A stretch of 64,000 nt of DNA, taken from the IMG/VR virus record IMGVR_UViG_3300027891_000004, positions 64,001 through 128,000 of that record; one strand, given 5' to 3'. The DNA is from a virus. Lineage: Duplodnaviria > Caudoviricetes. The first letter of the stretch is position 1. Each line of letters opens with the position of its first letter. The translations under genes were made by a program, and so were the position numbers. This document shows positions 21,184 to 57,958 of this stretch, one piece after another. A model generated the notes under the pieces. The model had not been told where the DNA came from. It saw only the letters and a list, made by a program, of their open reading frames with translations, and did no database searches.

Positions 21184-22878
21184 TTAAGCCGCCATTTTGA
21201 ATTCATCGCCATCTTCTTCCAAACGCGACGCTTCGTCGGCGACGATAAGTTTCTTCAATTCCGGCGACATGTCCAACAAAAACGGGTACCGGGACGCCAG
21301 CGAATGGAGCTGCGCAAGGTAGACACGTTTCATATCGTCCGACGATTCGCCCAGGTACATCGCCATAGCGTTCCGCGTCTCGGCGAATACCTCGTTCATC
21401 GCCTTCGTAAACGCGGTATCTACGCTTTTTCCGCTTATCGCGTCCGCCCCGTCATCGGTAGTTGACTGGGCGATCCGCGTAGCATCGGGCAACGAATCGG
21501 CTTTGGAATCCCCGTACTTTTTAATATGGGACAACACGGCGGCCTGCGCCGCCTTCAATTCCACGTCAAGGTTTTCCAACTCACGCAAGTCGGCGGGATC
21601 GAGCGGTTTCTTAGCCTTGAGCAATTTTGCGTTCTTTTCCTCCAACTCCGCGATCCGTGTCCGAATGTCTACTGCAATAGCACGCAACCGCTTGCGCTCC
21701 GCATTCTTTTTTTCAACCTCTTCACTATCGAACGAACCCTTCGGTCGCCCGGTCGAGGCCGACTCCCACAACCCGTCCTCAGTCTGCCGGAACTTAAACC
21801 CGCCACGCGCGTCGTTCAGAAGGTTCAGAATCAACGCCTCATTGAATGAGGTAACGAGTACCTGTGCCGCGTTTCTTAATTTCTTAACCGTACTTACGAA
21901 CAGGTCTTCACCCTCTTCCAAATCGTCGGAGGCCACGATTTCGGGGTTATCCTGCATCTCCTCACGAGCGGGCACCTCCTCAAGAACAATTTCGGGCGTG
22001 TCCGGCATAGCTTCGGACAAACTTGCCACTTTCGCGGGACCTGTCGGCGGCTCAATTGTGATTTTGTAACCCTCGGCTGTTGTAAACGATTGCACGCCGG
22101 GCATGACCGGGCCCGCGCCCATTGATTCCAAAGGCGGCGCGACGGCTACTTTTATTTCTGTATGCGCCGTGCCGTGCGCATTCGCGTTTTTCGCATCGGT
22201 GTGTCCCTGTTCTTCTCTAAAAAGTCGTGTAGATTCCATAACCGGCGACCCCGCAAGATAATCATTGTTGATGTACGTAGTAATGATATTCAACGTTTCT
22301 CCCGCTTTCATTTCTTTTCGTTCGTTAATGAGCAACCCGGCCCCATCCGATAGGCTACAAGCGCCCTGTTTACGGGGCAGGATAGCGAGATGGTCGGCCC
22401 GGATGTTGATGATACGCCCGATATACGGTTCGCTATTCCATACGCCCTCATCCATGATGAGTTCGGAGAACAGACCGGTCGATATTTCCATCGGGAGCCG
22501 GTGTTTGATATGCTCAAGCAGGGTAGGGCACTTCTCCTCGGCCTTGCGTCTATCGATCCACGCTTCGGCCTTGAGCTTACCGTCCACAAAATGCGTATTC
22601 ATAATCATCCCGACCGCCTGCCGCTTGTAGACTTCGAGATCGGTCGCCGTATCGCCCCGGAACGGATGTTCGATTACGACGGGCTTGAAATTCCACATTT
22701 TGGGCGTTTTTGCCAACTCTTCGGTATCGTAATAAACGGGCCCCTGCGAGCCGGTATGGACCCCTTCGAGGATCATCGTCATCGGGGCGACGACGTATTC
22801 ACGGTCGTCAAGCGTTTCGTACCGAACCGTCGGGTCGATAGTTACGTTCCAAATGGTTTCTATTTTGTTGCGTGGCAT
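21184..22878 (-). CDS. Prohead protease (DUF2213-like) with long C-terminal extension
   Basis: YVVAPMTMILEGVH, WNFKPVVIEHP, LKAEAWID, EISTGL, DHLAILP...GACS..DGAG. Confidence 0.85.
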   Translation of the reverse strand: MPRNKIETIWNVTIDPTVRYETLDDREYVVAPMTMILEGVHTGSQGPVYYDTEELAKTPKMWNFKPVVIEHPFRGDTATDLEVYKRQAVGMIMNTHFVDGKLKAEAWIDRRKAEEKCPTLLEHIKHRLPMEISTGLFSELIMDEGVWNSEPYIGRIINIRADHLAILPRKQGACSLSDGAGLLINERKEMKAGETLNIITTYINNDYLAGSPVMESTRLFREEQGHTDAKNANAHGTAHTEIKVAVAPPLESMGAGPVMPGVQSFTTAEGYKITIEPPTGPAKVASLSEAMPDTPEIVLEEVPAREEMQDNPEIVASDDLEEGEDLFVSTVKKLRNAAQVLVTSFNEALILNLLNDARGGFKFRQTEDGLWESASTGRPKGSFDSEEVEKKNAERKRLRAIAVDIRTRIAELEEKNAKLLKAKKPLDPADLRELENLDVELKAAQAAVLSHIKKYGDSKADSLPDATRIAQSTTDDGADAISGKSVDTAFTKAMNEVFAETRNAMAMYLGESSDDMKRVYLAQLHSLASRYPFLLDMSPELKKLIVADEASRLEEDGDEFKMAA

Positions 22879-23325: not shown

Positions 23326-23380
23326 TAGTATACCAAATTTTCAGCTACCGTGTAAAAAACGCGCACTAGAGAATTTTTTT
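23326..23380 (-). promoter_or_regulatory. Repeated promoter, copy 1 (TTTACA-N18-TATACT plus conserved upstream box)
   Basis: Shares TGTAAAAAACGCGCACTAGAGAATTTTTTT and TAGTATACCA with 33676..33730 and 37362..37417. Confidence 0.75.
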
Positions 23381-25016: not shown

Positions 25017-26191
25017 GCGGCCCTCCGCTTTTTCATTAAAATTTTGTACTTTTCGTAGGCGTCCGATTTCGTGGGCGAAAACGAAAGCCCCTTGCACCAA
25101 TAGTCGTTCCGCAACAGCGCCCGGCATATCCGACGCCAGCTGGGTTTACGATCCGAAACGGCATTTTCTTGTTTAAGCGGCAACTCATCGGGTATCTCCG
25201 CGTACCCGCGATCTCGCCACCATTTCAAAAACACAGCAATTTTGTTCTCGTAATGTTCGCAAAGATGGCCCGGCATGGAATCGAGCAGCAACCGTGCGAA
25301 CGCCTGCCACGTGATGCCCGCCGGTTTGGAAACCTTTATATTACCCAATATATTGCCCGACGTTTGCGAATAGAGCGAGCCCGCGTTCGCACCGTTTACG
25401 CGGGCAACGACGCGGGCCCATGTCTCCGGCTCGATCCGGTGGAACAGCCACAAACCTTTCCGCTGATCGTCGCCGTAAGGCTGACAAATCCGCATCTGAT
25501 GTATCGAAAGGCCCGCCTTGTGCATCAGATCGTACAACAGGTTATAGGGCAGCCGCGTCTTACCGAAAAAAGTCCATATATCTTCCGTTTTCCAATCGAA
25601 GATCGGGTACGCATTGTAGACGCCGCCCGGCATACGGGTCGTCCACGCCTTATTTGCGAACCGTTCTTTGCTCTCGCTCCAAATGGTACGCCGCCGGTTC
25701 AAACTCTCCGCCATCCGGATACCGACAAGGCAACACGTAGAAACGCCGCCACCGTACCATACGCCAAACTGCGGCACAAACTCTTCAAACTCCATCCCGT
25801 ACCGGAAAAAGGGGAAGTCGGCACCCGTCTTCACTGGATAATTGGGCAACGGGCGTACCCAATCTTTTTCACGACCCGGCTCCCAACAAATCCAACGCGG
25901 CTCAAACTGTGAAACGGCGTTACGCAAAAGGATAGGAAGCGTACACCAAAAAGGCTCGATATGCTCCGCGTACAAAGAAAACAGCTCGGAAACATGCGCA
26001 ATCGTATGCGCGTACTGGGCCTCCAAATCAATAAAGAACAAGCCGACTTTTCGACCGCGACGGGCCGCTTCTGCCAACGCAAGATGCGTCATCACCGACG
26101 AATCCTTCCCGCCCGAGAAAGATACGCAAACGCGGTCAAAACTATCGAAGCAAAACGCGATCCGCTCTTGGGCGGCTTCAAGCACATTCAT
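25004..26191 (-). CDS. ibrA: IbrA-like PAPS-reductase/PP-loop protein (DUF3440)
   Basis: VSFSGGKDSS, GIRMAESLNR, YPIFDWKTEDIW, MRICQPYGDDQR, PSWRRIC..LLRNDYWCKGLSF. Confidence 0.9.
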   Translation of the reverse strand: MNVLEAAQERIAFCFDSFDRVCVSFSGGKDSSVMTHLALAEAARRGRKVGLFFIDLEAQYAHTIAHVSELFSLYAEHIEPFWCTLPILLRNAVSQFEPRWICWEPGREKDWVRPLPNYPVKTGADFPFFRYGMEFEEFVPQFGVWYGGGVSTCCLVGIRMAESLNRRRTIWSESKERFANKAWTTRMPGGVYNAYPIFDWKTEDIWTFFGKTRLPYNLLYDLMHKAGLSIHQMRICQPYGDDQRKGLWLFHRIEPETWARVVARVNGANAGSLYSQTSGNILGNIKVSKPAGITWQAFARLLLDSMPGHLCEHYENKIAVFLKWWRDRGYAEIPDELPLKQENAVSDRKPSWRRICRALLRNDYWCKGLSFSPTKSDAYEKYKILMKKRRAAWGL

Positions 26192-27872: not shown

Positions 27873-29024
27873 CTAAATAACGGGCTTCGGCGCAGACAAT
27901 CTCGCGTGCAAGATACCTGCCCTTCCGTAAAAGTCCGATTTAAGACGAGGCAACAAAATGCAGATTACCTTGAAGTGGATTTCAAATCCTCCTTCTGTTT
28001 GCCACTGGACGGTGGTGATATCCATACCGGTAACGGCTTGGATGGTATTCTGGTCGAGTTCGATCATGACGAAAGTTCCGTAGGGTAGGAACTCGGAGCA
28101 ATTGATCGACTTGATTTCTTTGATCTTTTCCAACCGTTCTCGGAGCGTAATAGTGCTCGTTTGCCCGGCGGTATGATCGTTATAATCATCGTCGAGGATT
28201 TGGTCAAAATCGGGGCTATGGTAGATAGCGAACGGTCCGTAGTGCCGGATGTCGTGCAGGTTCCGTCGAGCGTCGAGGATTTGCCTGTAGAGGATAGCTG
28301 GCGACCAATCGGGATCGCGTGATCCATCGACCCTTGCCCAGTTGGTAAAGACTTTTGTAAGTCTTTGCGGGTAGTTGCACACGCCGTAGACGTTTCCGCC
28401 TCCGAACTGGAAATCGGGTTCGACGCCGAGCGCGAGTCTTTCGACTTTTTCGGCGACCATCCGGGACGCCATACCTGCGGTGGTTACGTCGATGGGCATA
28501 TTGGAGTTCCGGGAGACGGCGATTTGCCGTGCGCTGAAGCTGAAATCCTTGTGGATGATCGGCAACGGCATCTGATCCATGTCGTACATGGGCCGGTCCG
28601 CGTCCCCTTTGCGAAGCCCGTCCATACTGACGGTTGCGCCGGTGATATTGGATTGCCGTTCGTACTGCCACACGGTTTTCCCTAGCGCGTTTGGCAGGTT
28701 GACGTTAAGCCCGGCGGCTCGTAGGTCGTTGAAGAACCGGAGTCGTGGCATTGCTGCGGCGACGACGGTTTCGTCGATCATAACCCAGTCATCCTTTCGG
28801 AGCGTAGCTGCGTTTGTGGTCTGCACGTTTTTGAGAACGGGCTTCCCGTCTTTCCAACCGATTTGTTGCGAGATGAGCGAGGTATGCCCGTCATCGTGCA
28901 GGAACGGTCGGATGCAGCGGGGGTCGAAGTTGTAGGTAAGCAACCGGGTGGCAACGTCGCCGGACCCGCCGATTAGACTTGCGCCGTTCGTAATAGAAAC
29001 GGGCATCGCGTTCAGATTTTGCAT
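27873..29024 (-). CDS. Major capsid protein (HK97 fold, linocin/encapsulin-like family)
   Basis: NAATLRKDDW..IDETVV, PLPIIHKDFSFSARQI, YGPFAIY, ITTVQWQTEGG...FKV, GILH; 383 aa with AAGGA RBS and terminator. Confidence 0.9.
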   Translation of the reverse strand: MQNLNAMPVSITNGASLIGGSGDVATRLLTYNFDPRCIRPFLHDDGHTSLISQQIGWKDGKPVLKNVQTTNAATLRKDDWVMIDETVVAAAMPRLRFFNDLRAAGLNVNLPNALGKTVWQYERQSNITGATVSMDGLRKGDADRPMYDMDQMPLPIIHKDFSFSARQIAVSRNSNMPIDVTTAGMASRMVAEKVERLALGVEPDFQFGGGNVYGVCNYPQRLTKVFTNWARVDGSRDPDWSPAILYRQILDARRNLHDIRHYGPFAIYHSPDFDQILDDDYNDHTAGQTSTITLRERLEKIKEIKSINCSEFLPYGTFVMIELDQNTIQAVTGMDITTVQWQTEGGFEIHFKVICILLPRLKSDFYGRAGILHARLSAPKPVI

Positions 29025-33675: not shown

Positions 33676-33730
33676 TAGTATACCATATTTCAGCGAATTG
33701 TGTAAAAAACGCGCACTAGAGAATTTTTTT
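33676..33730 (-). promoter_or_regulatory. Repeated promoter, copy 2
   Basis: Same conserved boxes as 23326..23380. Confidence 0.75.
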
Positions 33731-36580: not shown

Positions 36581-37138
36581 TTAGTTCTTTTTGATGATAA
36601 CCAGTACTCGAGGTAAGACGACCAGAATGAGCTGGATGATGGAAATAATTTCGATCACGCCCATTTCGGCCTTTTCGCCCGCGTCCAGCGAGGCAACCGC
36701 CGTCCGGTCGGTGCTATCGAACGCGGGCGGCGATTCAAGCATTTGAAAATTGGGTCTTGCAAAAGGCAATATCTTACGGAGCCGCTTAATAAAGTTCGTT
36801 ATCCGGGGCCGTTGGATTTGAATGCGCCAATCATCGTGCATAATCTTCCAAGCGGCGTTGAAAATCTCGAAATCGGCCACGAACGCCTTCGCCGTCGTCC
36901 GCCATCCGTCTGCGTTGGAAGCCGCCGCGATTTCGCCAACCGATTCCAGATTGATAATGTCGAGCAGCGTTGCCTGCGCAATATACACGTCCGTGGTCGT
37001 AGTAAACCGTTCGTAATGTTCTGCATACCGGTCCGCGTCGTTGATCGTCGCCGCGATAGGGTTGCGGTACTTCCACGCAAACCCGAACGCGAGCCATACT
37101 CGCCAACCTATTTTCAAAATTTGTTTCCAAGTAGACAT
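36581..37138 (-). CDS. Membrane-associated hypothetical protein
   Basis: Amphipathic N-terminus and hydrophobic C-terminus GVIEIISIIQLILVVL. Confidence 0.55.
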   Translation of the reverse strand: MSTWKQILKIGWRVWLAFGFAWKYRNPIAATINDADRYAEHYERFTTTTDVYIAQATLLDIINLESVGEIAAASNADGWRTTAKAFVADFEIFNAAWKIMHDDWRIQIQRPRITNFIKRLRKILPFARPNFQMLESPPAFDSTDRTAVASLDAGEKAEMGVIEIISIIQLILVVLPRVLVIIKKN

Positions 37139-44687: not shown

Positions 44688-45212
44688 TTAGTATTCGCCG
44701 TCTTCCGTCTCCGATTCGGGCGGCGATATTTCGGCCAAGAATTGGTTCACCGCCTTTTTAGAGCCGAGCGGACCACCGGCCAAATTCGTTTTGACAAGCG
44801 CATTGGCTTCCGCCACAGCATAGGCTCCGAGCGAATCTTTGTAAACATCAACTTTCGCATCCTTAGCAAGCGGAAAGTTTCGAGATACGTTGGCGGCCGA
44901 CGCAAAATCGAACGGCATCATATCTTTCGGCGTCCCGGATGGGGTCTTGTGAACGTGTTCTTCCAAACCCGGCGGCACTTTGTTCTTATCCGGCCCGTCT
45001 TCGCCGTCTATCGGGATGTTCCCTATGTCCAGCGGCTCGCGTTGAAACTTGCCGTGAAACATCAGGTCAAGTTCATCGGGGCATAGAAACGATTCGCCTT
45101 TGGAATACTTCCGGTGCTTACCCTGATGTTCGCCTTCGATTACGCGAAACTTATAAAGGGGGCGACCGTCTTTTGTGGTGCGCGGCATCGCCGCTACTGT
45201 ACTTACAGACAT
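44688..45212 (-). CDS. Hypothetical protein, probably virion-associated
   Basis: Follows the decoration-like gene; GAGGA RBS. Confidence 0.55.
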   Translation of the reverse strand: MSVSTVAAMPRTTKDGRPLYKFRVIEGEHQGKHRKYSKGESFLCPDELDLMFHGKFQREPLDIGNIPIDGEDGPDKNKVPPGLEEHVHKTPSGTPKDMMPFDFASAANVSRNFPLAKDAKVDVYKDSLGAYAVAEANALVKTNLAGGPLGSKKAVNQFLAEISPPESETEDGEY

Positions 45213-45367: not shown

Positions 45368-45988
45368 TTAGGCGATCCTGACCCTAAGCAGGTTCACAAG
45401 CGCACCGTTCAGGTTCGGGTCGCGCATCGGACGCTCGCTAGTGGACGTATCAACCGCGTCGAAAAAGAACGGCGGCTGGTTCGCAGGCATATCGGTTGCC
45501 GGGCAAACGAATTGTTCGATAGCATGTGCCTTAACCTCGCTCCCGCCCGCTCCGGATTCGTTAGTAACGTACATACCGTTCGGGGTTTGGATGAGGAAGA
45601 GCGGGTCGCCGTTTTTATACGATCCCTCGACGCACCGCATAAGCAACCGGTCGCCGGAATTCGGGCGGTGCAACAGCGTAACTTCGCCGGGGATGGCCTT
45701 ATGGTTGAGACCCTTGCCAACAAGTGCGTTTTCGATGACGACGAACATTTCGACGTCATCGATCTCCATATCGGTGGGCACCTGCGATTGAACGCCGACA
45801 AGGTTCTGTCGAACAACCTGGGTGCCGGGCACTCCGGGTAGTTCGGCCAACTCGGGGTCTTCATCAAACGGGACGACGGTAACAACCGCTCCGGGGAGCA
45901 CGTTGCCTTCCTCATCCTTACTCAAAATATATTCTTCGTAAAAACCGTTCGAGGGTTCAAGACGAATAGTGTTTTGGTCAACGATCAT
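45368..45988 (-). CDS. Putative capsid decoration/cement protein
   Basis: NTIRL...VLPGAVV...VVIENALVGKG...SGDRL...GDPL, C-terminal LLRVRIA; AAGGAG RBS. Confidence 0.6.
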   Translation of the reverse strand: MIVDQNTIRLEPSNGFYEEYILSKDEEGNVLPGAVVTVVPFDEDPELAELPGVPGTQVVRQNLVGVQSQVPTDMEIDDVEMFVVIENALVGKGLNHKAIPGEVTLLHRPNSGDRLLMRCVEGSYKNGDPLFLIQTPNGMYVTNESGAGGSEVKAHAIEQFVCPATDMPANQPPFFFDAVDTSTSERPMRDPNLNGALVNLLRVRIA

Positions 45989-46000
45989 TGGGTTTTCTCC

Positions 46001-46696
46001 TTAATAGTAGTTTTGGTTCATACCGTTAGATGGGTTTGTCGAAGGCAATTCTAGCGGGGCACCCATCTGATACGCACCCGAATTGAAAACTGCTCTATCC
46101 GCCATCCCGGCCCCCTCGAAATTCCATTCGTTCATAGAGACGCGAGATTTTTGGTTGGACATCAGAGACGCCCATTTCTTCAGGTCGGGCGTCGGCATCC
46201 TTCGCAGGTCGGATTCCGTCCATGCTCCGTTGCAATTGGTAACGATAACATCGATAGACTCCTGCCGCATCATATCGCGGGCCGCCTTACCTTCTCTCAA
46301 TATCGCCGCCGTCGGTGTCGTGGACGTTTCGATAAATTCCTGCACGTCCTTCTCCGTAACGGGGCCGCTTTTTGCCACGTTCGCAACGGCGACCTGCGGC
46401 AAGAAGCGGTTCAATACAGACACTTCCTCTACATCAAACTCGGTTTCCAAAGCATCGCGTAGTTTCTTTTCAATACCGACCAATTCTACGATATCCTTTT
46501 GACAATCCGACAATCCTTCCTGCAACTCGTGCAGACGTGCTTCATTATGGACAGGGACGGTTTTTGAGCCGAGACCGGAAACCATACGTTGTAACACATC
46601 TTCGGGTATCCTTGTCAAATGTTTTGCATCGTCCCCACAGAACGATGAATTCGGATCGTTAATGATCTGCTTGATTAAACTATTCTTGCTGCTCAC
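46001..46696 (-). CDS. Putative scaffold protein
   Basis: Two repeats of I-x-x-I-x-x-N...(F/W)-x-x-x-D-x-x-x; V-x-N motifs; C-terminal PLELPST. Confidence 0.5.
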   Translation of the reverse strand: MSSKNSLIKQIINDPNSSFCGDDAKHLTRIPEDVLQRMVSGLGSKTVPVHNEARLHELQEGLSDCQKDIVELVGIEKKLRDALETEFDVEEVSVLNRFLPQVAVANVAKSGPVTEKDVQEFIETSTTPTAAILREGKAARDMMRQESIDVIVTNCNGAWTESDLRRMPTPDLKKWASLMSNQKSRVSMNEWNFEGAGMADRAVFNSGAYQMGAPLELPSTNPSNGMNQNYY

Positions 46697-46702
46697 CGGA
46701 AA

Positions 46703-47791
46703 CTATTGGTTGTTAGAGGGAAACGTGGAGGGAATATCCATAGCTTCTCCGAAATCGGAGTTTTCAACGCTAATGCTGGCGGCGTTATGGACAGCTTTTT
46801 CATTCTTTGCGGTTTTGCCACGTTTGGGACCGCAGCCGCTATTGGCAACACGTCCGTTACGGACCACTTCTACCTGCGGCGAAGTAGCCGAAGACGGGGA
46901 ATTACCATCGAGTTCGGATTCTTCTTCGACAACGGGCGCATCGACGGTCGGCGGATCGGCGACTTCATTGTCTTGGACGGCAATATCGGGGCGTGGAGAA
47001 GACGGGTTAATATCCGCATTTTTCACAACCATACCGCTATCGATATTATCCACTTCGATCTCTTCCGTACCGTCGGCGTTGATGATCCGTCGGTAGTTTT
47101 TGAACCGTCGGCATTTGCCGCTTTCGTTCATCAAACCGCCGCTACTTGCGTTCTTTTTCTTCAACGCTTCCTCAACGGCGTCGTCAATAGCCTGATCGAT
47201 GGTATTCGCAATCGCGCGTGCTTTCGCGTTCCGGACCAGCGCGTCGTATTTGGCGGCCTTCTCTCGCATGTTTTTGACAGACATGGATTCCATCGTGGTC
47301 GTTTCCGTAGTTGCGTAATCTTTCGACGGCATGACAGGGGCGTATTTCACGCCGTTGGCAACCGTTTTGCGGGCGTTTTTAACCTGGGCCACCGGGACAA
47401 CTGCGCTAAGTGTACCGTCGGCGTTTTTGACGATCTTCGCATTGGCGACTCGCCGGTACTTGGCACGGGAAGCCAACACGGGAACCTCGTCAACGATAGA
47501 ACCATCGCCTTCCGTGTCGTCGATAATTTCGATAATATCGCCTTCAACGGGTTCGGCTTCGGGATCATCAACCGGCTGGACAACGACAGGATCGCCGACT
47601 TCGGCGATCTGGTCGGTTTCGTCCACGTTCAAATCATCTTCGATAGTTATATCGTCCTCGTTCTTGACGACCCTGGCTTTGGATTTGTTCTTAACGGGCT
47701 TCCGGACGGTTTTTTGGGCGTTATGAATCGCCTGCAAGTTCACATCCGTCGCGCCGAGAGATTCCAAAATCGCTTGCATACTCATTGGCAT
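46703..47791 (-). CDS. Low-complexity head protein (scaffold/internal core) rich in V-x-N motifs
   Basis: About 19 [VILFA]-x-N motifs; acidic; C-terminal AMDIPST; AGGAG RBS. Confidence 0.6.
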   Translation of the reverse strand: MPMSMQAILESLGATDVNLQAIHNAQKTVRKPVKNKSKARVVKNEDDITIEDDLNVDETDQIAEVGDPVVVQPVDDPEAEPVEGDIIEIIDDTEGDGSIVDEVPVLASRAKYRRVANAKIVKNADGTLSAVVPVAQVKNARKTVANGVKYAPVMPSKDYATTETTTMESMSVKNMREKAAKYDALVRNAKARAIANTIDQAIDDAVEEALKKKNASSGGLMNESGKCRRFKNYRRIINADGTEEIEVDNIDSGMVVKNADINPSSPRPDIAVQDNEVADPPTVDAPVVEEESELDGNSPSSATSPQVEVVRNGRVANSGCGPKRGKTAKNEKAVHNAASISVENSDFGEAMDIPSTFPSNNQ

Positions 47792-48087
47792 TGTTTTATT
47801 CTCCTTTACTTGGTGAGGTCGGCAACAGAAACGTTAGGCAACGACCGGTAAATTGACTGCAAAATGCTACGCTAAGCTCGCGTATGAAAACAGGCATAGC
47901 GCATCTTTTGTGCAAAATTCGCACCAAGTATTGTACCAGGTTTTTCGCTACTTTGGAAAAACTAAAAAAAAATTACCAAACGTTCAAAAAGCAAACTTGC
48001 TCAGGCCCCTGTTTTACCGAGTTATTACAGTTTTTTAAACGCTTAAATTTCCTCGCGCAATAGAGAATTTTTTTCGGCAAGTTTGTC

Positions 48088-49168: not shown

Positions 49169-49699
49169 TTAGAACAGGTATACCATTTTGAAATCAGTTG
49201 TCAACCCCACGCTCTTCTCGAACCAATCAAAAACCTTGTCGGGGTCTTTGTCACGCATAATCGACATCGACAAACAATCGCATACGAATTCTGACAAGGC
49301 ATCTTCGTCCATGCCGGTCGCGTCGATATTTGTCTTCGGGTCTTTACGGGCGAACGGTTCATCAGGGGCCAATCTGTTATCCCAATGTTCGGGGTGATGC
49401 GGATTCCGCAAAATATGCGTCCAAGTATCTGCGTCGATCCGTCTGTTGATTTCGTCAATATCTCCCGGCAACTCATCCAATGCGTGTTCGGTTTCCCGCC
49501 ACTGGAGCAGATAATAGTAGGGCAGGTCGAATTTATCTTCGTCATGCTTCGGGAAATACCGACCTATGAAAGAAGCGAGCGTATTGACGCGGGCGATATG
49601 CCGTTGCGTAAAATCCACGAAATTCCGCCTGATTTCTTCGCACAAGGGCAGGTACTCCGCGCCCCATCCAAACGCTTGGCATAATTCGTTTTTATTCAT
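49169..49699 (-). CDS. Hypothetical protein
   Basis: Coupled to the upstream gene by an ATGA overlap. Confidence 0.6.
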   Translation of the reverse strand: MNKNELCQAFGWGAEYLPLCEEIRRNFVDFTQRHIARVNTLASFIGRYFPKHDEDKFDLPYYYLLQWRETEHALDELPGDIDEINRRIDADTWTHILRNPHHPEHWDNRLAPDEPFARKDPKTNIDATGMDEDALSEFVCDCLSMSIMRDKDPDKVFDWFEKSVGLTTDFKMVYLF

Positions 49700-50181
49700 G
49701 GTACAAAAGTATATTGGCAATGGGGGCACCGACAATGACCGGGCAGGATCGGGTCGATCTTGGTCTCGAAATCGATCCCGGCAAAATGCAAGTTAGAGGC
49801 ATCAATCTGGTACTCGTTGATATAATCGAGCAACACGTTTTTATTGATTTCACCGTTTTGGTTATTCAGTTCCAAAACCTTGGCGCGCGCTTCCCGTTCG
49901 TTTTCGGCTTCGATGAAAACGGTGGGTATTTCCGGGATCGTATAGCCCCGGTCCTTCAAATCTTTCAATGCGAGGTACCGCCCGTTCCCGTCCATGAGCC
50001 AATTCCGGCCGTCGTTTTGCCATATAAAAACGGGGAACGAGAACCCTACTTTGAGGATCAGGTTGGACAAATCCATGATATCCTTCTGCCGACGGTCCTT
50101 CAGACGGTGTTGGAACGGCGTAAGTTTATCGAACGGGAGGCTATCCTGCGTTTGGCACGTGATCTGTATTTCTTTTGACAT
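49696..50181 (-). CDS. ParB/Srx-like domain protein
   Basis: GFSFPVFIW, LMDGNGR, IEAENEREA; C-terminal CPHC. Confidence 0.75.
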   Translation of the reverse strand: MSKEIQITCQTQDSLPFDKLTPFQHRLKDRRQKDIMDLSNLILKVGFSFPVFIWQNDGRNWLMDGNGRYLALKDLKDRGYTIPEIPTVFIEAENEREARAKVLELNNQNGEINKNVLLDYINEYQIDASNLHFAGIDFETKIDPILPGHCRCPHCQYTFVP

Positions 50182-50539: not shown

Positions 50540-51229
50540 CTAGTGTGGTTCAAAATGAATGAACGATTTTTTACATTTCGGGCAATGGACCACCATCTCA
50601 TCGTCCGGCTCCTGATCTTCCGGTAAATCGTCGGGCGCAGGCGTTTCTGGCAGGTTTTGCGACAGCGTATGCGTCCGTTCGCCACGTTCGGATGGTTTTT
50701 CGCCCTTCGGCGGCTTCGCTTCAGGCTCGTCCATTATCGGATTGTACTCCGCCGTAGAATCAAGCACAATATCCGCCTTCAGCAACAGCCGCATCTCTTC
50801 GGTAATCGAATCCATGTCCAACGTCGGAAACTTATATTGGGACAGATCAATCAGCGGCAAATCCCGAACCAAATCTTTGAAGCCCGACACGGTATAATCG
50901 CCCGATATTGTATTGATATACACCAATTTTTCCCGCGCCTCGGCCTCGTCTTTCGCATCTATATAGACAACGGGCAACGGGGGAATTTCGTAGCCTTCGC
51001 TATGCAGTATTTGAAGCGCAAGTTGACGACCGTGCCCATCAAGGCAGGAACATACGCCGTCGGGCTGTCTCCAAATGAAAAACGGGGCGAAAAAACCATG
51101 CCTCAAGATGCTTTCGGCGATATGGTCCACGTCATACTGCTCGCGTGATTTAAAAGCACCCTGAAAAGCAACGATATTGGAAAGGGGTAGGTGATCTTTC
51201 GACCGACAAGTAATTTGTATGGTTTTCAT
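50540..51229 (-). CDS. ParB/Srx-like domain protein (paralog of 49696)
   Basis: GFFAPFFIW, LDGHGR, IDAKDEAEA; C-terminal CPKC. Confidence 0.75.
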   Translation of the reverse strand: MKTIQITCRSKDHLPLSNIVAFQGAFKSREQYDVDHIAESILRHGFFAPFFIWRQPDGVCSCLDGHGRQLALQILHSEGYEIPPLPVVYIDAKDEAEAREKLVYINTISGDYTVSGFKDLVRDLPLIDLSQYKFPTLDMDSITEEMRLLLKADIVLDSTAEYNPIMDEPEAKPPKGEKPSERGERTHTLSQNLPETPAPDDLPEDQEPDDEMVVHCPKCKKSFIHFEPH

Positions 51230-51286
51230 TGAAGATATAGGTGAAGTTGCTTTGCAAAGTATAGCAACTCGCGGCTCGTATGTCAA

Positions 51287-54251: not shown

Positions 54252-55697
54252 TCAACAAAAAGTCAAATCCAATTTGATACTTTTTTCAAGAAGTCGTTCA
54301 AAATCAATAGACGGCGTTTGAACGCCATCCACGTCAAAATAACCACGTCGTTCATTCAAAAGGATCGCGGAAATAACGCCGTTGGTTGCAAGCCGATACG
54401 GGTAATCCCCCAACTCTTCGGGCGACAGCGGAATCGTAACGGACGACGTAGAACAAAATTCCTTCTCCCAATCTGCCCGATGCTTGTCGGCGACCATGTT
54501 CGCAACGGCCACAAACCGCATCTCTTCGGTACGCGGGTTATGGTAATCGAGCCGGACAACCGTACCGGGCAAAAGCCGAACCGAATTCCCCGACCGGGAC
54601 GCGCCCCATTCGCAGCCGAAATATGGCGGGATAGATATTCGGGATTTTGCACGTTTCAAAGAAGCGGGGACCGGCTGTAGCAAAACATGATAAGAACCGA
54701 TCTCGGCGTTCCATACTGGCAACGACACGTACCCGTTAAATGGTTTGGCAATATCGGGCGGCAACGAATCGGGCACGAGCTGTTCCGGCTGTAGTTCGGC
54801 GTCCAACTGGTTCCACACGCAAACTTCGCAGCCGCAAACGGAGTTATGGACGGGCGTAAGGGAGCCGAGTTTAAGTTTGTAGCGTCGGTCCAAGCGTTGC
54901 CGTAGTTTCTTTACCTTGAACTCCTGTTCTTTTTGCTCGGACTGCGTCTTTTTACCGCCGCCGCGTACCAAACGCCACAAGCAGCGGCAATTCGGATGGC
55001 GGGGTAACAGGGAACGCGCCTGTTCAATAGTCATACGTTTGCCTTCGAGTTCTTCGCATTTCTTGCACCGTCGGTGATCTTTGACGGTCTCTATCTGCGC
55101 TATCACCTCTTTGATATTTGCAGCTTGGTAGGCGTCTAATTTTGCTTCTGCTTCGGCTTTGGTTATTTCGTCCTGCACCGTTGTCTTGACTTTTTGTTTG
55201 TACTTATCAATCGCCTTCTCGGCGGCTTCGGTAAGCAATTCGATTTCACGCGGCGACAGGGGTTCCGACGACTCCTGCTTCTTTTTCGGGACAACGCGGT
55301 CGTATACTTTTTTCACGGCGTCCGTAACGATCTTCCCGAACCCCGTGAAAAGCCCGGCTACTTTCTTCCCGGCTGCTTTTACAAGTTCGCCGATAGCCGA
55401 GTTCTCAACGGCGATCATTTCCAATAGTTTTTCGTCGTTGTACGCCGAGTTTCTAATTTCAACGATCCCGGTCCGGTGCGATGCTCGGTACGCCTTATTG
55501 ATAACGTCTGTTATGAACTTTTCGGAATAGAACGCGGGCAGCCGTTCCTCAGCGGCGGCAAGAAAGCCCGCCACGTGGCGGGATCGGAACAGTTCCCGGA
55601 CGTTATTTTTTAACTTCGCAAAATGTATTTCGATAGCGAGGTCCGTCTCGTTGCGAAGGAAAACAATATCGGAAGGTTCGCTATGCGTGATATTCAT
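54252..55697 (-). CDS. Head morphogenesis protein (SPP1 gp7 / Mu gpF family) with C-terminal extension
   Basis: DHRRCKKC..LEG...LPRHPNCRC; contains palindrome 55567..55582. Confidence 0.8.
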   Translation of the reverse strand: MNITHSEPSDIVFLRNETDLAIEIHFAKLKNNVRELFRSRHVAGFLAAAEERLPAFYSEKFITDVINKAYRASHRTGIVEIRNSAYNDEKLLEMIAVENSAIGELVKAAGKKVAGLFTGFGKIVTDAVKKVYDRVVPKKKQESSEPLSPREIELLTEAAEKAIDKYKQKVKTTVQDEITKAEAEAKLDAYQAANIKEVIAQIETVKDHRRCKKCEELEGKRMTIEQARSLLPRHPNCRCLWRLVRGGGKKTQSEQKEQEFKVKKLRQRLDRRYKLKLGSLTPVHNSVCGCEVCVWNQLDAELQPEQLVPDSLPPDIAKPFNGYVSLPVWNAEIGSYHVLLQPVPASLKRAKSRISIPPYFGCEWGASRSGNSVRLLPGTVVRLDYHNPRTEEMRFVAVANMVADKHRADWEKEFCSTSSVTIPLSPEELGDYPYRLATNGVISAILLNERRGYFDVDGVQTPSIDFERLLEKSIKLDLTFC

Positions 55698-56425: not shown

Positions 56426-57958
56426 TTAGAATCCCATGTCGCTTAAGCCTCCCGTACTCGCACCACCTGACATATTAGGCGCGAGACTGGCGGCTTCTTT
56501 TTCTGCTGCTTCTGATTTGTTCTGTTCGGCACGCCGCGTAATCGTTCTAGCTTTCGTTTCCGACATATCGCAAAATTCCATAAGAAACGTAACGGGATCA
56601 TAAAAACGATCCAAATTGGATGCGTAGAACTTTTCAAGGAACTCAATTTGCTTGGCCCTTACCTCGTATATCTCCGTCCGGGTATCTATAGACAAATCGG
56701 GCCATTCAACTGAAAAATCATTGTTAAACGGATTTGGAACAATCCCGAACGTAACAAGACGTTGGACAACTGGCTTAATAAGGAAGGGGGTCAGATACGA
56801 TTCCTGCCGTTCCATGAGTCGTTTCTTCCAAATCACGGCATCCTGCGTAGAGGCCAACTCGCCGCGTTCGGAACCCATCAAAATACGAGCCGGGCACCCA
56901 AGTCCGATAGCAATTTGGTTTATGCAAACTTCGACATGTCCGGTAGGGTCGGCGTATGAAGACGACAACTGGTTTACGGTCGCGTTCTTAAGGGCCATCC
57001 ACCGCTGGAACTGGTTCTCGAACAATTCGACCTGCCGTTGGATTTCCGGGATGTCCAATTGAACGGTGTTGAGCAGGTTATCTGTAGCCTGTATAATGTA
57101 TCCGGGGTACGCGCCTTTGTAAAACATCTCGCCTGACGAACCGAAAATCTTCATCAGATCGAGGCACGCATTGTAAACGAGCTTCAACCGGGGCACGCCG
57201 ATTATCTCCGAAATTTCACGATTATCCGCGATGTGGACCACGCGAGTCCAATGTATCTCTTGCGTGGAAAGATCGACATGCCCGCCAGAAAACTCAACAT
57301 TAGGCGATTGGGCCTGGATACGGTACATTGTCGGATGCCCGTACCTTTGGCTATTCCGACGAATTTCTGATTCTACAATATCCACCTGCGATTCCGGAAA
57401 CGCACGTAAATACCCCAATTCATATTTTACGCCATCTTCGATGGTTACGGGTTCGTTCATCGGCTTGCCATCGTTTATCCCAATAATAAGTATCCCGTAA
57501 CTACCGATCCCGGAAAGTATATCGGCCCGGCGAAGCCAGCCCCATATATTATGTTTGCTAAAAACGGCGTCAATCTCTCTTTTAAAATCGCTATCGGCTG
57601 GCGCGTTAGAATCGAGAATAGTAGGGCGAGTCTGCCAGCATTCAAGCGGGTACAACTGAACCACGCGGTGCGCGATAGGGTTCCGGTCATACATATCTTG
57701 GTAATCAAACTTAGAGATCATTTGCGGATAGCCGAACTGGCTCGCGTAATCTCTATTGAGAGGATTGGTATTTACCTCGCCGCCGAACCCGCCGCCCATA
57801 GCCATACGACGACGGAATAGCTGTTGCATAGCGTCGTTCATAACGGAAACACTTTTTGTTTCCGGTTCTTTGTTTGTACTTACGTAAGGGGCAATCTCCA
57901 ATTCGTGCGAACCTCGCCTAGTGTCCGAATCGATCCCGTGGCTTATAACGTTGTTCAT
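56426..57958 (-). CDS. Portal protein (DUF1073-like)
   Basis: FGYP, YDRNPIAHRVV..YP..CW, YGHPTMY, IHWTRVVH, PARILMGSERGELASTQD, VEWPDL. Confidence 0.9.
   Translation of the reverse strand: MNNVISHGIDSDTRRGSHELEIAPYVSTNKEPETKSVSVMNDAMQQLFRRRMAMGGGFGGEVNTNPLNRDYASQFGYPQMISKFDYQDMYDRNPIAHRVVQLYPLECWQTRPTILDSNAPADSDFKREIDAVFSKHNIWGWLRRADILSGIGSYGILIIGINDGKPMNEPVTIEDGVKYELGYLRAFPESQVDIVESEIRRNSQRYGHPTMYRIQAQSPNVEFSGGHVDLSTQEIHWTRVVHIADNREISEIIGVPRLKLVYNACLDLMKIFGSSGEMFYKGAYPGYIIQATDNLLNTVQLDIPEIQRQVELFENQFQRWMALKNATVNQLSSSYADPTGHVEVCINQIAIGLGCPARILMGSERGELASTQDAVIWKKRLMERQESYLTPFLIKPVVQRLVTFGIVPNPFNNDFSVEWPDLSIDTRTEIYEVRAKQIEFLEKFYASNLDRFYDPVTFLMEFCDMSETKARTITRRAEQNKSEAAEKEAASLAPNMSGGASTGGLSDMGF

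Follow-up and report, generated by a model that had tools for sequence, protein, structure and literature searches.

Conserved hydrophobic-x-asparagine sites in a disordered protein of an uncultured phage as candidate cut sites of a DUF2213 head maturation protease

Why should one phage protein carry a short valine-x-asparagine motif more than a dozen times, in a gene that directly precedes a scaffold-like one? The question is raised by two adjacent genes in a 64-kb window (the whole stretch analysed, bases 64001-128000 of the 167,820-bp uncultured phage contig IMGVR_UViG_3300027891_000004; all coordinates are those of the window unless marked as genome coordinates). Their products, of 362 and 231 amino acids (aa), are named P0001 and P0002 in this analysis. 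An earlier note on this DNA had read the motif as the cut site of an asparagine-specific head maturation protease of the DUF2213 family. We find that the conserved motifs are most likely the places where this protease cuts, judging from their distribution and conservation in sequence. Throughout, P3 is the third residue before a cut, P1 the last residue before it and P1' the first after it, and a slash marks a proposed cut or junction. The two genes and the C-terminal tails of their products are as follows.

46703..47791, minus strand: P0001, 362 aa, largely disordered; a candidate prohead core protein and candidate protease substrate with many sites
46715..46741, minus strand: C-terminal tail of P0001, M-D-I-P-S-T-F-P-S, a putative docking peptide
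46001..46696, minus strand: P0002, 231 aa, with a GTG start 6 nt past the P0001 stop; by its sequence profile a free-standing scaffolding protein
46028..46054, minus strand: C-terminal tail of P0002, L-E-L-P-S-T-N-P-S, the same motif as the P0001 tail

P0001 contains 17 [VI]-x-N motifs (IHN, VKN six times, VAN three times, VRN twice, IAN, IIN, VDN, VHN and VEN), against 4.9 predicted by its own composition (Poisson p = 1.4e-5), and it ranks first among 186 genome proteins for this enrichment. With LMN and FKN the count of [VILMF]-x-N comes to 19, which agrees with the total of about 19 in the earlier note, although that note had counted VKN only five times. When 1083 residue-pair patterns at spacings of 1-3 were scanned in P0001, V-x-N was the strongest (14 against 3.2 expected, p = 6e-6) and K-N the second strongest. 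Internal duplication as the source of this density was ruled out, since BLAST of P0001 on itself found no internal repeats. The protein consists of alternating basic and acidic blocks; all motifs lie in non-acidic, mostly basic blocks, and none falls in the interior of either long acidic stretch, at residues 45-117 (net charge -20) and 259-312 (net charge -10).

Conservation singles out the same residues. A word-indexed homology search returned one homologue of P0001 and none of P0002; the two families were therefore built from an exhaustive HMMER search together with neighbouring genes in relatives' contigs, and for P0001 the exhaustive search gave 14 homologous clusters, or a family of 15 with P0001 itself. 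In an alignment of 14 sequences (P0001 and 13 homologues at 26-39% identity to it), M1, N44 and N117 are invariant, N24 and N238 are among the nearly invariant residues, and the alignment as a whole holds 160 [VI]-x-N against 58.5 expected, the motif context across the family being R-R-[VIT]-[KRH]-N-A-R. Mean conservation in P0001 is 0.49 for motif asparagines, 0.14 for non-motif asparagines and 0.25 for all residues, and the one conserved asparagine counted as non-motif, N214, sits in a motif in 10 of the 13 homologues. About 11 sites are conserved (N24, N44, N117, N123, N139, N174, N214, N232, N238, N317 and N336). Structure models leave most of the protein disordered, with a predicted local distance difference test score (pLDDT) of 0.41 in the ESM Atlas and a mean of 54 in AlphaFold2 (AF2), where 197 residues score below 50; about half of the sites fall in AF2 segments with pLDDT below 50. 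These data support the view that the motif in P0001 is a conserved functional element and no effect of composition.

Support for a role in processing comes from the places at which the same motif recurs. On sequence grounds it sits at the maturation cuts to be expected in this phage: the capsid joint, the end of the protease domain, the portal N-terminus, the joint between leader and cargo, and the stretch just upstream of the scaffold-type tail. The minus strand carries nearly all genes of the genome, and the head genes are scattered over the window, with portal, MuF-like protein, major capsid protein and DUF2213 protease far apart:

21184..22878, minus strand: DUF2213 prohead protease, 564 aa (Pfam PF09979; PHROG 'head maturation protease')
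27873..29024, minus strand: major capsid protein, 383 aa, DUF6260/encapsulin-like, with I-T-N13/G and T-T-N71/A
54252..55697: MuF-like protein, from a Pfam search
56426..57958, minus strand: portal (PF06381), in which V-M-N41/D closes the N-terminal extension

In the capsid protein, 64 of 65 distinct relatives have a [VILMFTA]-x-N site that precedes the core helix, L-R-K-x-x-W, by 2-6 residues; P3 is Val in 40 of the 65, and P1' is Ala in 56. The encapsulin alignment begins at residue 74, three past N71, and [VI]-x-N is enriched 2.7-fold in the propeptide and stands at 0.66-fold in the core. A second site, I-x-N-G near the N-terminus, is present in 54 of the 65 relatives. The D-G-A-G that ends the protease domain is followed by Asn in 61 of 62 relatives, 42 of which show it within [LVIF]-x-N, and portal relatives conserve hydrophobic-x-N-[A/S/D/E] at the position of N41: T-F-N/E in close relatives, V-M-N/D here and [ML]-x-N-[AS] in more distant ones. 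The portal VMN, capsid ITN and protease LIN pointed out in the earlier note thus all exist at positions conserved in relatives, but its protease YIN is not conserved, and in the capsid it is T-T-N71/A, just before the core, that matters most and not I-T-N13. The leaders mostly end in F-N as had been described: 15-16 of 19 leaders found with a hidden Markov model (HMM) end in x-F-N, the commonest P3 residue being V, then A and M, and a second site, T-I-E-N or P-V-Q-N for instance, is present in several.

Compared by groups of proteins, the motif is enriched 1.58-fold in the seven other head proteins (p = 0.018), against 0.88-fold in large tail proteins and 1.09-fold in all others, and leader proteins taken whole reach 1.18-fold, which is not significant. 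By this comparison, the idea that the motif is dense in head proteins holds strongly for P0001 alone.

The second gene of the pair can be assigned with more precision. Pfam and PHROGs gave no match for either P0001 or P0002. The P0002 family does match the canonical DUF2213 scaffold profile, made from the last 200 residues of DUF2213 proteins from capsid relatives (hhalign 98.7%, E 1.5e-16), and because this match extends over 169 columns (P0002 residues 5-220) we regard P0002 as a scaffold module detached from its protease: by profile comparison it is a free-standing homologue of the scaffold domain normally fused to the DUF2213 protease. Unlike the canonical proteins, P0002 is not fused to a protease domain and has its own gene about 24 kb from the protease. 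The window's protease consists of a domain reaching to about residue 185 (with L-I-N185 at its end), a linker and a helical C-terminal part; it is without the canonical scaffold tail, and its C-terminal part gave no match to the scaffold profile.

All six motifs that the earlier note had listed for P0002 (IIN, VHN, VLN, VAN, VTN and VFN) are present. Three sites (near N51, N106 and N154) are each retained by 6-7 of the 8 sequences in its family, and AF2 places them in linkers: one in a loop of low confidence, one in a disordered stretch and one where a long helix ends. In the 15-sequence alignment of canonical scaffolds, the Asn of L-I-A-N and that of I-T-A-N are among the invariant or nearly invariant residues. 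The AF2 model of P0002 is elongated and all-alpha with a disordered tail (predicted template modelling score, pTM, 0.30). Fold searches with it found nothing significant (best E 0.63 in the PDB and 0.033 in BFVD), 'prohead core' proteins appearing only among the weak fold matches; ESM Atlas neighbours, a DUF2213 cluster (template modelling score, TM, 0.38), DUF4355 and Mu-like_Pro, were taken only as leads.

A separate observation concerns the ends of these modules. The last ~24 residues of the protease (21187-21260, minus strand), which end K-K-L-I-V-A-D-E-A-S-R-L-E-E-D-G-D-E-F, bear a weak resemblance (hhalign E 0.14) to the first residues of the canonical scaffold module, L-I-A-N-x-x-T-x-W-x-E-x-D-R-E, and P0002 begins like that module as well. 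The resemblance at the protease end may be a trace of the split of protease and scaffold into two genes.

P0001 shows no profile-level homology to the scaffold domain outside a 13-residue tail and is a separate family. Its best local match to both scaffold profiles is this extreme C-terminal tail (hhalign E 0.001 against the P0002 family and 0.054 against canonical scaffolds). The tail takes the form L-D-I-P-S-T-F-P in the P0001 family, P-L-E-L-P-S-T in P0002 and its seven homologues, and E-E-P-L-x-I-P-x-x-N-F in canonical scaffolds, where the tail, in general form P-L-x-[ILV]-P-x-x-x-[FW], was found in 48 of 63 DUF2213 proteins; in the genome's protein set no protein beyond P0001 and P0002 carries it. 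A hydrophobic-x-N site lies 2-12 residues upstream of the tail in 12 of 12 clear P0001-family tails, and when the residues allowed at P3 are widened to V, I, L, M, F, T, A or P, such a site also precedes it in 42 of the 48 canonical scaffolds. From this sequence pattern, the common tail L-[DE]-[ILV]-P-[ST]-T-x-P probably docks P0001 and P0002 inside the procapsid, and P0001 is probably a new family of disordered proteins that carries a scaffold-type C-terminal tail and belongs to head assembly.

Gene order points the same way. Two distant contigs have the portal first, then two ParB-like genes, then homologues of P0001, P0002 and the gene at 45368, in that order; in four other contigs a ParB-like gene and a sigma-r4-like helix-turn-helix (HTH) gene come first, followed by the same trio. 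The 45368 homologue always adjoins the P0001/P0002 pair in relatives, and a 419-aa paralogue of this gene matches phrog_766 'head decoration' (6.9e-5). Homologues of the next gene, at 44688, lie directly downstream of the capsid gene in five canonical head modules. The earlier note had placed both proteins in the head-assembly machinery, and synteny, scaffold homology and the shared tail bear this out. Upstream of P0001 stands a 21-nt element, AAAAAAATTCTCTA[GT]TGCGCG, with five copies in the genome, four of them in the window against 0.18 expected:

45368..45988, minus strand: 206-aa decoration-like gene, placed by synteny and by its 419-aa paralogue, which matches a head-decoration family
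44688..45212, minus strand: 174-aa gene whose homologues follow the capsid gene in canonical modules
48054..48074, minus strand: 21-nt promoter-like element about 280 nt upstream of P0001
37395..37415, 33709..33729 and 23359..23379, all minus strand: further copies of the element
about 25696..25716 in genome coordinates: fifth copy of the element

The copies stand upstream of P0001, the protease operon, the decoration-like paralogue, a leader-tagged gene and the gene at 36581-37138. Downstream of four of the five lie a T-rich -35-like box and a TATACT-like -10 box; the copy at P0001 has diverged. The element is a candidate promoter class common to the P0001 operon and the protease operon, as far as sequence goes.

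Relatives found by other routes look different. Among 80 capsid relatives in IMG/VR the canonical order is portal, MuF, DUF2213 and capsid protein, and these relatives, found through the capsid protein, have canonical modules without P0001, P0002 or leaders; the leader HMM, run on contigs with P0001 homologues, found no convincing leader there. Searches of a cultured-phage collection with the region's DNA and with P0001 found no related record. The paralogous ParB-like genes of the window (49696-50181 and 50540-51286, minus strand) are kept between portal and P0001/P0002 in distant relatives (L004, L013, L001, L011).

P0001 and P0002 are real minus-strand genes: both have homologues, and the codon model favours them over the antisense reading. 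A 381-aa open reading frame antisense to P0001 (46706-47851, plus strand) was rejected as a gene, the codon model preferring the minus frames. Full-length antisense open frames occur in four of nine P0001-homologous genes, the longest in others being only 136-157 aa, and codon composition, with its scarcity of Leu and of TCA-type Ser codons, is the most likely source of the 381-aa frame. The codon score places the capsid gene 182nd of 205, among the lowest in the genome, and was for this reason given up as a stand-in for expression level. This low score may hint at a separate origin of the capsid gene; the capsid joint often reads N-A-T.

The enzyme proposed to read the motif is recognisable as a head protease. 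It matches PF09979 at 32.2 bits (cut-off 22; E 1.3e-7) over residues 48-169 and PHROG 'head maturation protease' families at up to 2.9e-9, and its candidate catalytic residues H71, S133 and H163 are invariant in 63 relatives, in gp33 of phage TLS and in gp22 of phage PB1. TLS supplies the closest experimental anchor. Its gp33 is a DUF2213 protein (82.5 bits), and the mature N-terminus of its capsid protein, determined by Edman degradation, is ASDMGIW (PMC11447400); because this read maps to A28, the cut is K-N-D27/A28. On the capsid gene (L096:1088-1390) the read implies the removal of 27 residues and disagrees with the 45 inferred in the text of that paper (PMC11447400). In PB1 the capsid protein reads A-M-D64/S65-N66, and in the related phage E217 residue 66 is the first one modelled in the capsid protein, the 65 before it being invisible (PMC10329688); presuming PB1 and E217 to be identical in this stretch, the PB1 capsid sequence probably fits Asp at P1.

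The lineage studied here conserves Asn, not Asp, at the equivalent boundaries: 64 of 65 relatives have it at the capsid joint and 61 of 62 where the protease domain ends. The two residues are of the same shape, and a switch of the cut site from Asp to Asn is plausible because TLS has both a DUF2213 protease and a capsid protein cut after Asp. Two positions of the enzyme follow the same division: Tyr50 (0.98) and Asp162 (1.00) in 63 lineage enzymes, where TLS and PB1 have Arg and Asn. They are candidate specificity determinants, a lead drawn from only two Asp-type sequences. The earlier note had looked to T4 and phiKZ for precedent; TLS is closer, being itself a DUF2213 system with its capsid protein cut after Asp before Ala, and because it is the closest experimental precedent the proposal is better put as an Asp-to-Asn variant of the DUF2213 rule. 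The literature searched held nothing direct on DUF2213 specificity or on Asn-specific prohead proteases.

We propose the following mechanism. P0001 and P0002 would be made together with the protease from a common promoter type and would enter the procapsid, their tails docking to the shell. The protease would then cut after [V/I/T]-x-N, with an aliphatic residue at P3, Asn at P1 and often Ala at P1'. If the ~11 conserved sites were cut, P0001 would be left in 12 pieces: two acidic fragments (73 and 79 residues) and ten that are short and for the most part basic. With cuts at all 19 sites the number would rise to 20. P0002 would fall into about four pieces, the tail would be severed from the body in both proteins, and the fragments would leave the head ahead of DNA entry. 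This enzyme would also take off the 71-residue propeptide of the capsid protein, trim the portal N-terminus, free itself from its own C-terminal part and take the leaders off about 20-30 cargo proteins, toxin-like ones included. We infer docking, co-expression, cleavage and the exact scissile bond from the genes. That P0002 is a scaffold, P0001 a core protein and the conserved [V/I/T]-x-Asn the cut sites of the DUF2213 protease is, taken together, an account we hold to be slightly better than even. The wider reading, in which the lineage switched its P1 preference from Asp to Asn (with Arg-to-Tyr at 50 and Asn-to-Asp at 162 as candidate determinants), P0001 is a dedicated substrate to be shredded and one code serves throughout, we hold more tentatively, at a little under even.

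Several findings weigh against this mechanism. At P1 the one DUF2213 site known from experiment carries Asp, not Asn (and Ala follows at P1'). The large terminase, no expected substrate, ranks second in the genome for the motif. The motif context varies with the substrate, R-V-K-N-A-R in P0001 against S-V-F-N in leaders, and P3 is Arg at the capsid joint of Brevundimonas phage MaInes, a cultured relative with an Asn-type joint, and at that of Hardycor1, and Gln or Arg after 19 protease domains. Within P0001, N174, N188 and N196 lie inside a predicted helix (pLDDT 89), and N123 and N238 stand at N-A-D-G hairpin turns, where the Asn could be structural. Asn is also a common helix cap, which could account for the P0002 sites at helix ends. 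In P0002 itself the six motifs compare with 1.9 expected (p = 0.014), which is not significant after multiple-testing correction, so that of the two proteins to which the earlier note had ascribed motif density, P0001 is individually significant and P0002 marginal. Finally, the members counted in the family statistics are phylogenetically non-independent.

Some of these points favour a motif that is functional but non-scissile, a binding or structural element, with any cleavage following another rule. The Asn would then act as a helix cap or beta-turn residue, or R-V-K-N-A-R would contact DNA, the capsid interior or the protease. The sites of P0001 have Arg/Lys-rich flanks, with R enriched at P4 and P5 and at 4x at P2', and several of them fall in the predicted helix or hairpin turns just described, as those of P0002 do at helix ends. 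Yet the P3/P1 pattern is found again precisely where maturation boundaries lie, in contexts that are unrelated and non-basic, and it is depleted in the capsid core; because a DNA-binding or capping role predicts no placement at maturation boundaries, such a role is weakened, and we consider this explanation unlikely, if still one to be taken seriously.

The sites might also be processed in some other way: cut at residues away from the Asn, by another protease, or by Asn-driven self-cleavage through a succinimide. Sequence conservation alone does not place the scissile bond. Asn-mediated self-cleavage is established for the asparagine peptide lyases (inteins and some viral coat proteins), and this genome has intein-like V-H-N/S junctions in its terminase. 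Self-cleavage, however, requires a catalytic environment that is folded, and most of P0001 is disordered; Pfam found no asparagine peptide lyase or intein domain around its sites. As for an offset cut, the conserved Asx in TLS is P1 directly before a small P1' residue, matching N/A here. We judge processing of this other kind improbable.

Equally poor, in our estimate, are the prospects of P0001 being no head protein at all but a disordered protein of the ParB-like/sigma-like/primase region, acting for example on DNA. Its want of a Pfam or PHROG match would suit that idea, as would its neighbours, which include two ParB-like genes, a sigma-r4-like HTH gene and a primase, and its likeness to scaffolds spans only the 13 residues of the tail. 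On the other side, P0001 always stands immediately upstream of P0002, it follows two genes after the portal in two lineages, its best local match to both scaffold families is exactly that extreme C-terminal tail, and it has its upstream element in common with the protease operon. Chance or amino-acid composition, which the richness of P0001 in V, N and K and the high score of the terminase might suggest, was tested and rejected as very improbable on the composition-controlled expectation, the unbiased pattern scan and the conservation of motif asparagines across 14 diverged homologues.

The terminase is of interest in its own right. This 1046-aa protein (genome 148237-151377; L009:38-3178, minus strand) matches TerL families only at residues 511-815 and 956-1043, and it reads P-P-G-S-G-K/C...T-L-V-H-N/S-S and ...D-V/C-D-G-D-W...F-V-V-H-N/S-G-G. 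On this sequence it looks like a protein holding two inteins, the first within the Walker A loop, and two of its motif sites are the V-H-N/S junctions, to which it owes part of its high rank for the motif.

Newly established here are the motif statistics and family conservation of P0001, the identity of P0002, the pairing of the tail with a site upstream of it, the upstream element, and the TLS anchor with its two candidate residues. DUF2213 is a very large and hardly studied family of phage head proteases, and a readable cut-site rule would make the mature forms of capsid, portal, scaffold and cargo predictable from sequence, even in uncultured phages. The recurring pairing of cut site and docking tail suggests how the scaffolds of this family leave the shell, and P0001 would be a new kind of prohead component, disordered and with the proposed cut sites as its most conserved residues. 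If the proposal is true, one short code governs scaffold removal, trimming of capsid and portal, and release of cargo from leaders, and the enzyme would be, in the literature searched, the first tailed-phage maturation protease to cut after asparagine.

Breakage of bonds after Asn is known from legumain and from the asparagine peptide lyases (inteins, nodavirus and reovirus coat proteins), which have unrelated folds and chemistry. Among phages, the T4 gp21 rule is [LI]-x-E, a layout of hydrophobic P3 and fixed P1 with Glu at P1, and the P3/P1 layout here matches it; the T4 enzyme is an S77 protease, whereas Pfam finds only DUF2213 here and the motif ends in Asn. The sequence layout of the present system would fit a T4-type scheme, with core proteins cut at many sites and a leader taken off at the same motif. 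The same repeated-motif logic is followed by T4 gp21 (acting on the core proteins gp22, gp67 and gp68 and on internal proteins with their capsid-targeting sequence), phiKZ gp175 and SPN3US gp245: a fixed P1 and a preferred P3, repeated in scaffold or core proteins and in propeptides, and closing an N-terminal targeting leader (PMC9026906, PMC10052503). The propeptide of SPN3US gp53 has several copies of its motif, at least three of which are cleaved (PMC9026906, PMC10052503).

Within the DUF2213 family, the Pbunaviruses (PB1, E217 and Pa193) offer a second comparison. Their DUF2213 protein gp24 has been called a 'putative scaffolding protein' (PMC11456595, PMC10329688), and in Pa193 a fragment of the DUF2213 protein stays bound to the capsid interior (PMC11456595). 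The likeness lies in a DUF2213 protein that joins protease and scaffold, and the invisible capsid residues of E217 are much like the 71-residue propeptide proposed here. The PB1 scaffold ends without the P-L-x-I-P-x-x-N-F tail, and in our phage the scaffold is a separate gene. The nearest relative in mechanism would be TLS, a T1-like coliphage in which gp33 acts on the capsid protein gp36: it has a protease of the same family with the invariant His-Ser-His candidates and a propeptide cut at Asx before Ala. TLS differs in having Asp at P1 and Lys at P3, where the candidate sites here have Asn and an aliphatic residue, and it has no counterpart of P0001 or of the leader-tagged cargos. Together, the Asp-type enzymes of TLS and probably PB1 and the Asn-type enzyme proposed here would form a compact system for following the evolution of P1 specificity.

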